A DNA stretch of 64,000 bases from Escherichia phage ECO111 5-P, in sequence record OR844765; one strand, 5' to 3'. The notes under the pieces were generated by a model. The model made no database searches and had not been told where the DNA came from. It was given only the letters and a program-made list of their open reading frames with translations. Within the stretch, counting starts at the first letter, position 1, and each line of letters begins with the position of its first letter. The translations under genes were made by a program, and so were the position numbers. Below, in pieces: positions 44,748 to 45,995 of the stretch.

Positions 44748-45329
44748 ATGACATGTCAATCTGAACTTCAAGAACGTGAATACCTAACAAATCTGATTGA
44801 TAGCAAATTCACCCGCCAAGAACAAAACATTCTCTGGGCTTGCACCGATTCTAAGGAAGACCCGGATTTCCACTATGAATTAGACCATCTTGTTCGTAAG
44901 CATATGACTTCTACAGTACCAGTAGAACTCTACCGTGGTGTAACTCCAGAAGAAGTAGAACGTCTTTCCCTTCTTTCTGTTGGATGCCATTGGTCTCCTG
45001 GACGAGTAACATCATTCACAACTGATTTCAGTACAGCTCGTCAATTCTCTGGGAGTTGGGAATATCAGACGTACACTATTCTTAGTCTCAGGAATGCTCC
45101 ATTCATTTTTGATTACTACCAAAACATGATTAACATTGTACTCGCCGGAAAGAACCCTAAGCATGTTATGGAAGAAAAGCGTGTTGACGTCCTAGATATG
45201 ATTGAATCTGAACAAGAGTACATGGTCTCAGGTATCTCTAGATTTGAGATTGTGGAAATTGAAGACTTAGAATATGACCCTTTATCTCGATTATACAAAA
45301 TCATTCATTTGAAAATGTTGAATTTTTAG
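44748..45329 (+). CDS. Mod-like ADP-ribosyltransferase (R-S-E type), paralogue 1
   Basis: ELYRG (Arg), FSTARQF (S-T), EQEYMVSG (ExE-like) motifs; adjacent paralogue; position as T4 modA/modB. Confidence 0.6.
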   Translation: MTCQSELQEREYLTNLIDSKFTRQEQNILWACTDSKEDPDFHYELDHLVRKHMTSTVPVELYRGVTPEEVERLSLLSVGCHWSPGRVTSFTTDFSTARQFSGSWEYQTYTILSLRNAPFIFDYYQNMINIVLAGKNPKHVMEEKRVDVLDMIESEQEYMVSGISRFEIVEIEDLEYDPLSRLYKIIHLKMLNF

Positions 45330-45386
45330 TGTACAAACTCTTCCGATGATGATACTATACCTTTATCAACCACAGGAGAAACCTAA

Positions 45387-45995
45387 ATGTTTATGCCGTA
45401 TAACGAGTGTGAAATTGAAGAAATGGTTCGTCGTGCTCAAAACCCCGAATATCAAGATGTATTGCAGTACGAAATTGATAGTCAATTCAACGATAATGAA
45501 CAAAGCATCCTTTGGCAGTGTATGGAAAACAAGCCAGACTGTATTCAACAGGAGTTAAGTTCAATCGTTCGTAGAAATTGGACGTCTTCTGTTCCTGAGA
45601 CAATGTATCGTGGAATCTCTAAGAAAACTATGGCCACACTTGATGATAAAGGCATTGGTAGTATTATTAAATTTGACAGAGTAATGAGCTTCAGCCCAGT
45701 GTTCGGTGTAGCACGTAACTTTGCTTCGTATAATTTTTACGGAACATTTAATATGTTCTGCATCAAAGATGCGCCATTTGCTTTCAACTTCCGTGAACAT
45801 ATGCTTAACATGATTCTGGCTGCGCCATCTTGTGAGTTCAATGGAGCTTTTCCTGAAGCGACAAGACGGTCTAATGCTAGACTTATATCCGACGAATGTG
45901 AATTTATGCTCCCTATAGGGACTACACTGCGTGTAGATTCTATTATTCAAGATGGACGTTATACAATCTGGAATCTGTCTATTGTCAGTTACTGA
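45387..45995 (+). CDS. Mod-like ADP-ribosyltransferase (R-S-E type), paralogue 2
   Basis: TMYRG, SFSPVFGVARNF, ECEFMLP motifs; parallel layout to 44748..45329. Confidence 0.6.
   Translation: MFMPYNECEIEEMVRRAQNPEYQDVLQYEIDSQFNDNEQSILWQCMENKPDCIQQELSSIVRRNWTSSVPETMYRGISKKTMATLDDKGIGSIIKFDRVMSFSPVFGVARNFASYNFYGTFNMFCIKDAPFAFNFREHMLNMILAAPSCEFNGAFPEATRRSNARLISDECEFMLPIGTTLRVDSIIQDGRYTIWNLSIVSY

Follow-up and report, generated by a model that had tools for sequence, protein, structure and literature searches.

Phage T4 carries two adjacent genes for ADP-ribosyltransferases (ARTs), modB and modA, and the genome of Escherichia phage ECO111 5-P (OR844765) raises the question of whether a gene pair at positions 44748-45995 encodes enzymes of the same kind and, if so, whether each member is the one-to-one counterpart of a T4 gene. 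Positions refer to the window, i.e., the whole stretch of 64,000 nucleotides that was analysed. The interval consists of exactly two open reading frames (ORFs), p1 and p2, both on the plus strand and separated by a short spacer (the positions that correspond to T4 modB and modA are called the B slot and the A slot):

44748-45329, plus strand: p1, 193 aa, predicted Arg-type mono-ADP-ribosyltransferase of the Mod family in the modB slot; R63, S89-F-T91, E155-Q-E157
45330-45386, plus strand: p1-p2 spacer, 57 nt, read from the sequence; contains the p2 Shine-Dalgarno
45387-45995, plus strand: p2, 202 aa, predicted Arg-type mono-ADP-ribosyltransferase of the Mod family in the modA slot; R75, S101-F-S103, S114, E170-C-E172

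Homology and genomic setting of the pair

Both proteins are full-length homologues of T4 ModA and ModB, i.e., members of the Mod family (phrog_832/PF26816). Against phrog_832, described as "RNA polymerase ADP-ribosylase", the E values were 4e-38 for p1 (residues 6-193) and 1e-37 for p2 (residues 17-202). In BLASTP comparisons with the T4 sequences, which were taken from NC_000866, p1 matched ModB at E 2e-27 (90.5 bits, 38% identity over 160 aa) and ModA at E 5e-10 (42.7 bits), and p2 matched ModB at E 1e-32 (103 bits, 30% identity) and ModA at E 3e-21 (73.9 bits, 31% identity); identity to the T4 enzymes was thus 27-38% in the local matches, and 23-32% in the full trimmed alignment. Between p1 and p2 themselves identity was 33% over 147 residues (E 4e-27), in agreement with the original prediction that the two are paralogous yet diverged. 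Short motifs by themselves could be a matter of chance; the homology of p1 and p2, judged from these alignments, could not.

Homologues in the databases all share one precomputed Pfam family, PF26816; local Pfam-A and NCBIfam scans of p1 and p2 gave no match, these copies holding no model of the family. Because an exhaustive search of 1.84 billion representative proteins with a profile returned only 126 clusters at E <= 0.001, we judge the Mod family to be small. Most of its members belong to phages, and some form a domain within giant polyvalent proteins.

The surroundings of the pair are as follows:

42347: gp56 dCTPase
42929: soc-like ORF, named on the basis of the "virion structural protein" annotation in colinear phage records
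43886: Mrh (PF24070)
between Mrh and p1: two small modA.2-type ORFs
46148: Srd (phrog_1400)
46897: Y01A/dda.1 protein (PF25693)
47205: Dda helicase

The gene order 56, soc, mrh, p1, p2, srd, dda.1, dda is that of T4, whose map has these genes on the other strand. The pair therefore sits in the early region between the mrh/modA.2-like genes and srd-dda.1-dda, which is where T4 has modB-modA and where it had been predicted to lie. In two respects this neighbourhood departs from that of T4: the segF homing endonuclease is absent between gene 56 and soc (window 42884-43886, compared with 6000-9700 of T4 piece L001), and dam is absent between gene 56 and the primase gene 61. Between primase and gene 56 there is a short opposite-strand ORF, according to the annotation of JK45 and AV118.

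Over positions 44000-47200, many phages of E. coli (vB_EQ1, AV118, moskry, JK45 and APCEc01) share 98.5-99.1% identity with the window, and AV118 is classified as a Mosigvirus, the RB69 group; the source phage is a Mosigvirus (RB69-like) phage of E. coli. In near-identical genomes the pair is labelled "RNA polymerase ADP-ribosylase", "ribosyltransferase" or "ModA or ModB ribosyltransferase"; AV115 encodes a protein with 100% identity to p2. Since Mosigvirus genomes of ~99% identity already annotate both genes, p1 and p2 are known at the annotation level, and as such they are ordinary and nothing new: host-takeover ADP-ribosyltransferases are to be expected in a T4-like phage, and many public Mosigvirus genomes contain near-identical annotated copies. 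One of the small ORFs 5' of p1 (44352-44531, 59 aa, a homologue of T4 modA.2) had no Pfam match. Its homologues in AV118, moskry, KPV15 and ABTNLS3 are labelled [quoted passage not shown], which looks like an annotation error caused by a collision of names.

Catalytic residues and predicted fold

An Arg motif, an S-T motif and an E-x-E-like acidic motif, in the order expected of R-S-E ADP-ribosyltransferases, had been proposed for both proteins, and all three were found in each: Y62-R63-G64, S89-F-T91 and E155-Q-E157 in p1, and Y74-R75-G76, S101-F-S103 and E170-C-E172 in p2. In the alignment with the T4 enzymes, these motifs fall in the same columns as R72, S96-x-S98 and E163-x-E165 of ModA and R73, S99-x-T101 and E171-x-E173 of ModB. 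The catalytic Arg and Glu, whose retention was decisive for the prediction, are invariant in 15 of 15 aligned family members. Experiments have found the same columns to be important in T4: ModA R72 and E165 (PMC8120803; the E165A mutant is inactive, PMC11404850), ModB R73 (PMC10468400) and ModB E173 (bioRxiv 2025.07.11.664405), all of these being second-hand assignments from the four sources given. With ModB (P39423), p1 shares the catalytic R-G, S-x-T and E-Q-E, its R63 and E157 corresponding to ModB R73 and E173. The primary mutagenesis paper behind the T4 assignments is reportedly that of Tiemann et al. (2004).

A published table gives S109 as the "S" of the R-S-E motif of ModA and as a key residue (PMC8120803). 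In our alignment, the invariant S-x-S/T strand that matches STS of Vis is S96-A-S98 of ModA (T4 piece L001, 3912-4511, minus strand); S109 is predicted to lie in the helix/loop after that strand, and among the 15 aligned sequences a Ser in this column is conserved in the A-slot proteins only.

AlphaFold models computed from a 24-sequence alignment are confident and compact for both predicted structures (pLDDT 90.1 and pTM 0.84 for p1; pLDDT 95.0 and pTM 0.88 for p2). In a Foldseek search of the PDB, the p2 model matched Tre1, HopU1, C3, XopAI and Vis (E about 1e-5, probability 1.0) and also iota/CDTa (probability 1.0). The p1 model superposed on predicted structures of Mod proteins from other T4-like phages with TM 0.8-0.92. 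The models thus have the ART catalytic fold, and the motifs are laid out as in R-S-E enzymes, strand 1 carrying the Arg, strand 2 the S-x-S/T, and E-x-E coming at the start of a later strand: in p1, strand 60-64 contains R63, strand 88-91 contains S89-T91, and E155/E157 are found at strand 157-160; in p2, strand 72-76 contains R75, strand 100-103 contains S101-S103, and E170/E172 come immediately ahead of strand 173-175. When p1 and p2 were searched singly against the sequences of PDB chains, the outcome was no match or chance matches (nucleophosmin and Cas9, E 0.01 or weaker), while the family profile gave sub-threshold but sensible matches to the solved ARTs XopAI and Vis (E 0.1-1), and a weak HMM alignment placed YRG, TSFS and ExE on YRG, TSTS and EAE of Vis. 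Because these ART sequence matches are not significant, the mapping of motifs to structure rests on the fold matches and the T4 alignment. The R-S-E ADP-ribosyltransferase identity originally predicted is thus supported alike by sequence, predicted fold, catalytic residues and synteny.

The bacterial R-S-E ART toxins (C3, iota/CDTa/VIP2, Vis, Certhrax, Tre1 and HopU1) are only 10-18% identical to the Mod proteins and differ from them in targets and biology. Mod proteins have an N-terminal three-helix segment of their own and, unlike these toxins, carry no secretion or translocation domains.

Correspondence to T4 ModA and ModB

Pairs of mod genes are found in Tequatrovirus, Mosigvirus, Dhakavirus and Gaprivervirus, and a single mod gene at the equivalent place in Gelderlandvirus, Karamvirus, Jiaodavirus and Krischvirus. 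The Dhakavirus, Gaprivervirus and Gelderlandvirus S16 loci have the same flanking genes as p1/p2. Identity to p1 is 61-65% for the Dhakavirus B-slot protein; identity to p2 is 52-58% for the Dhakavirus and Gaprivervirus A-slot proteins; and the single Mod of S16 is 41-45% identical to p1 and p2. None of these relatives has been characterised experimentally, and so they add no functional information.

From its sequence, p2 is plausibly the orthologue of ModA (P39421), to which several features link it: i) p2 occupies the slot directly 5' of srd; ii) the top tblastn match of T4 ModA in Mosigvirus and Dhakavirus genomes was the A-slot gene (p2 in Mosigvirus), and for P0051, which is 60% identical to ModA, the next-best matches were A-slot proteins; iii) p2 shares the serine of "FAS", its Ser being aligned with ModA S109; iv) in a neighbour-joining (NJ) tree of 46 sequences, ModA and P0051 joined the A-slot clade with 55% bootstrap (110/200), that clade alone having 92-97%. 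The two proteins are also similar in length (202 vs 200 aa), carry the same R, S-x-S and E-x-E residues, and align F-N-F of p2 with F127/F129 of ModA. On the other hand, identity between them is low, and p2 scores higher against ModB than against ModA; as p1 does the same, best-match logic by bits is ambiguous.

For p1, the predicted position held, but a one-to-one match to ModB is not supported by the phylogeny. As the upstream partner of the pair, following modA.2-like ORFs, p1 stands in the modB slot, and its best T4 match is ModB; in the 46-sequence tree, by contrast, p1 and T4 ModB were monophyletic in 1 of 200 bootstraps and did not group apart from other Mods (NJ being a distance method in which long-branch artefacts are possible). 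Instead, p1 and the Dhakavirus B-slot protein formed a group with 100% bootstrap, joined next by single-copy Mods of the S16/CkP1 or PEi20/Q7622 type, and the Gaprivervirus B-slot protein made up a third branch, so that B-slot proteins lie in three separate branches, one for T4, one for Gaprivervirus and one for Mosigvirus/Dhakavirus. A first tree of 15 sequences had left both ModA and ModB unplaced (bootstrap under 50%); adding 31 family sequences helped to place ModA, but not ModB.

p1 could belong to a different Mod lineage, either exchanged with another T4-like phage or retained as a copy of ancestral type, with targets that differ from those of ModB. We consider this a real possibility, if somewhat short of an even chance. 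In line with it, p1 clusters with the single-copy Mods of other genera (44-47% identity to those of S16, CkP1, PEi20 and Q7622, as against 32% to ModB), and the segment before E-x-E is shortest in p1 (by 5-13 residues relative to the other Mods in the alignment) and longest in T4 ModB, whose long insertion p1 lacks (a difference of 13 residues). Mosigvirus mod genes moreover look mosaic: between LF82-1 (2362-3609) and window positions 44748-45995, dS was ~0.27 for both mod genes, but 0.04 for the adjacent srd and 0.13 for dda, suggesting that the mod segment was exchanged by recombination between Mosigvirus lineages, with local mosaicism. However, deep nodes of the tree are under 50% bootstrap, and the same pattern could arise if T4 ModB alone had evolved fast.

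Strict orthology to ModB and ModA is also possible, if at rather less than an even chance. Here one ancestral duplication would be common to the four genera with gene pairs, p1 would have ModB targets (S1, EF-Tu and trigger factor) together with RNAylation, and p2 would be specific for Arg265 of RNA polymerase alpha. The slot order, which is identical in those four genera as against one mod gene there in the other, more distant four, is consistent with such a history, as are the better score of p1 against ModB than against ModA (90.5 vs 42.7 bits) and the clade of A-slot proteins with ModA. The rarity with which p1 and its Dhakavirus relative joined ModB, the three branches of B-slot proteins and the closeness of p1 to single-copy Mods argue against it, long-branch effects in a distance tree being able to produce this pattern. 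The placement of p1 may thus be due to rapid evolution with artefacts of that kind, or else to real turnover of the B-slot gene.

That the modB-slot gene is replaceable or turns over fast in T-even-like phages strikes us as on the unlikely side. If it did, the B-slot proteins of Tequatrovirus, Gaprivervirus and Mosigvirus/Dhakavirus would represent three different Mod lineages, the host targets of p1 would differ from those of T4 ModB, RNAylation would possibly be absent or different, and the determinants of target choice, as well as those of the acceptance of NAD-capped RNA, could come to light from a comparison of such natural variants.

T4 ModB ADP-ribosylates and RNAylates S1, L2, EF-Tu and trigger factor (PMC10468400), its targets being components of translation (PMC3014915). 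As p1 does not group with ModB in the trees, neither these targets nor RNAylation can be transferred to it with confidence; moreover, what lets ModB accept NAD-capped RNA has been left open (PMC10468400), and because these determinants are not established, RNAylation is not to be inferred for p1.

Predicted activity, targets and expression of p1 and p2

Whatever the descent of p1, both proteins are very probably functional enzymes of the T4 Mod family (R-S-E clade, with a cholera-toxin/C3-like fold), i.e., mono-ADP-ribosyltransferases that are expressed early, depend on NAD and are specific for arginine. By inference from the family, the Arg of strand beta-1 (R63 in p1, R75 in p2) and the S-x-S/T strand would keep NAD+ in place, cleavage of the nicotinamide-ribose bond would be the work of the second Glu of E-x-E (E157/E172) as catalyst, and the first Glu (E155/E170) would direct ADP-ribose onto an arginine of a host protein. 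Such ADP-ribosylation would help to reprogram the host soon after infection.

T4 ModA is NAD-dependent and modifies Arg265 of both alpha subunits of RNA polymerase (PMC2988021). By analogy, p2, which adjoins srd and is most probably the counterpart of ModA, probably acts on RNA polymerase alpha as well. p1 probably modifies other host proteins; analogy with ModB would point to the translation apparatus, with the qualification that p1 sits on another branch of the family than ModB. The main difference between p1 and p2, as across the family, lies in a segment of variable length just before E-x-E. It corresponds to the substrate-recognition (ARTT) region of other R-S-E enzymes. Because it differs by indels between p1 and p2, it is reasonable to suppose that the two have different targets. 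The literature searched gave no activity or target data for p1, p2 or any Mosigvirus Mod protein.

Arginine specificity in particular would follow from E-x-E, which, as against Q-x-E, is the arginine-specific form (PMC8120803). Some R-S-E members, such as SCO5461 and Scabin, modify DNA or tRNA (PMC8120803), and the acceptor of p1 and p2 might likewise be a nucleic acid or small molecule; we regard this as highly improbable, as the DNA-modifying members in that source carry Q-x-E and ModA and ModB, the nearest relatives to have been characterised, act on arginines of proteins (PMC10468400, PMC2988021, PMC3014915).

Both genes have been kept intact. Among the Mosigvirus genomes compared, the p1 and p2 proteins are 93-100% conserved, and dN/dS against three other Mosigvirus alleles was 0.0-0.18 for the two genes (0-0.14 for p2); purifying selection maintains both. 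Duplicated ARTs sometimes lose activity, yet that p1 or p2 should be a catalytically dead pseudo-enzyme or a decaying duplicate is barely credible: we found no evidence in its favour, R, S-x-S/T and E-x-E are all intact, the frames are full-length, the predicted models of both are of good quality, purifying selection excludes decay, and conserved catalytic residues together with dN/dS ruled out this reading along with that of chance ORFs.

At ~30% identity to the studied T4 enzymes and with the catalytic core kept, p1 and p2 would be useful natural variants for the study of target specificity. They would also be of use for asking why the attachment of NAD-capped RNA to proteins is known from ModB alone, a question left open in 2023 (PMC10468400).

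Both genes have Shine-Dalgarno sequences, GGAGG 6 nt 5' of the ATG of p1 and AGGAG (45374-45378) 8 nt 5' of that of p2. Early expression of the pair would agree with a candidate promoter upstream:

44693-44720, plus strand: T4-early-type promoter-like site 5' of p1; (G)TTTACA, 16 nt, TG-T-TATGAT, extended -10

The site (GTTTACA-16-TGTTATGAT) had the top sigma-70-like score in a scan of 42000-48600, with 10/12 matches plus the TG, and its -35 hexamer GTTTAC is the T4 early promoter consensus (PMC1524935); because the total of promoter-like sites in that scan was no greater than chance, it counts as a consensus match alone. In T4, modB and modA overlap by 4 nt (modA 11908-12510, modB 12507-13130), whereas p1 and p2 are separated by a spacer of 57 nt, and the mod pairs of Dhakavirus and Gaprivervirus by one of 44-54 nt. 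The p1-p2 spacer holds a weak promoter-like TGTACA-17-TACTAT (45330-45358) with 8/12 matches, which is below the scan threshold. A (G)TGTACA hexamer likewise precedes srd (46071-46098), with TATTAT and a TG extension as its -10. The hexamers before p2 and srd are spaced 16-17 nt from the -10-like hexamers, and from their sequence the two sites may be variant early promoters with G instead of T at -33, G at this position being preferred in some T4-like phages (PMC1524935). Scans of the whole 64-kb window for tRNAs and Rfam families gave no matches.

Elsewhere in the window, a gene cluster (27944-32050) lies directly 3' of the DNA polymerase gene (25192-27903) and is followed by a dCMP hydroxymethylase-like gene:

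27944-28579: SIS-domain sugar-phosphate isomerase (D-arabinose-5-phosphate isomerase in the AV118 annotation)
28761-30446: 561-aa nucleotidyltransferase with a kinase-like C-terminal part
between the preceding and the following gene: 133-aa ORF, no match
30890-32050: peptidase-U32-like protein
32329-33045: dCMP hydroxymethylase-like gene, after the cluster

The cluster presumably resembles the RB69-type genes for arabinosyl-hydroxymethylcytosine DNA modification.
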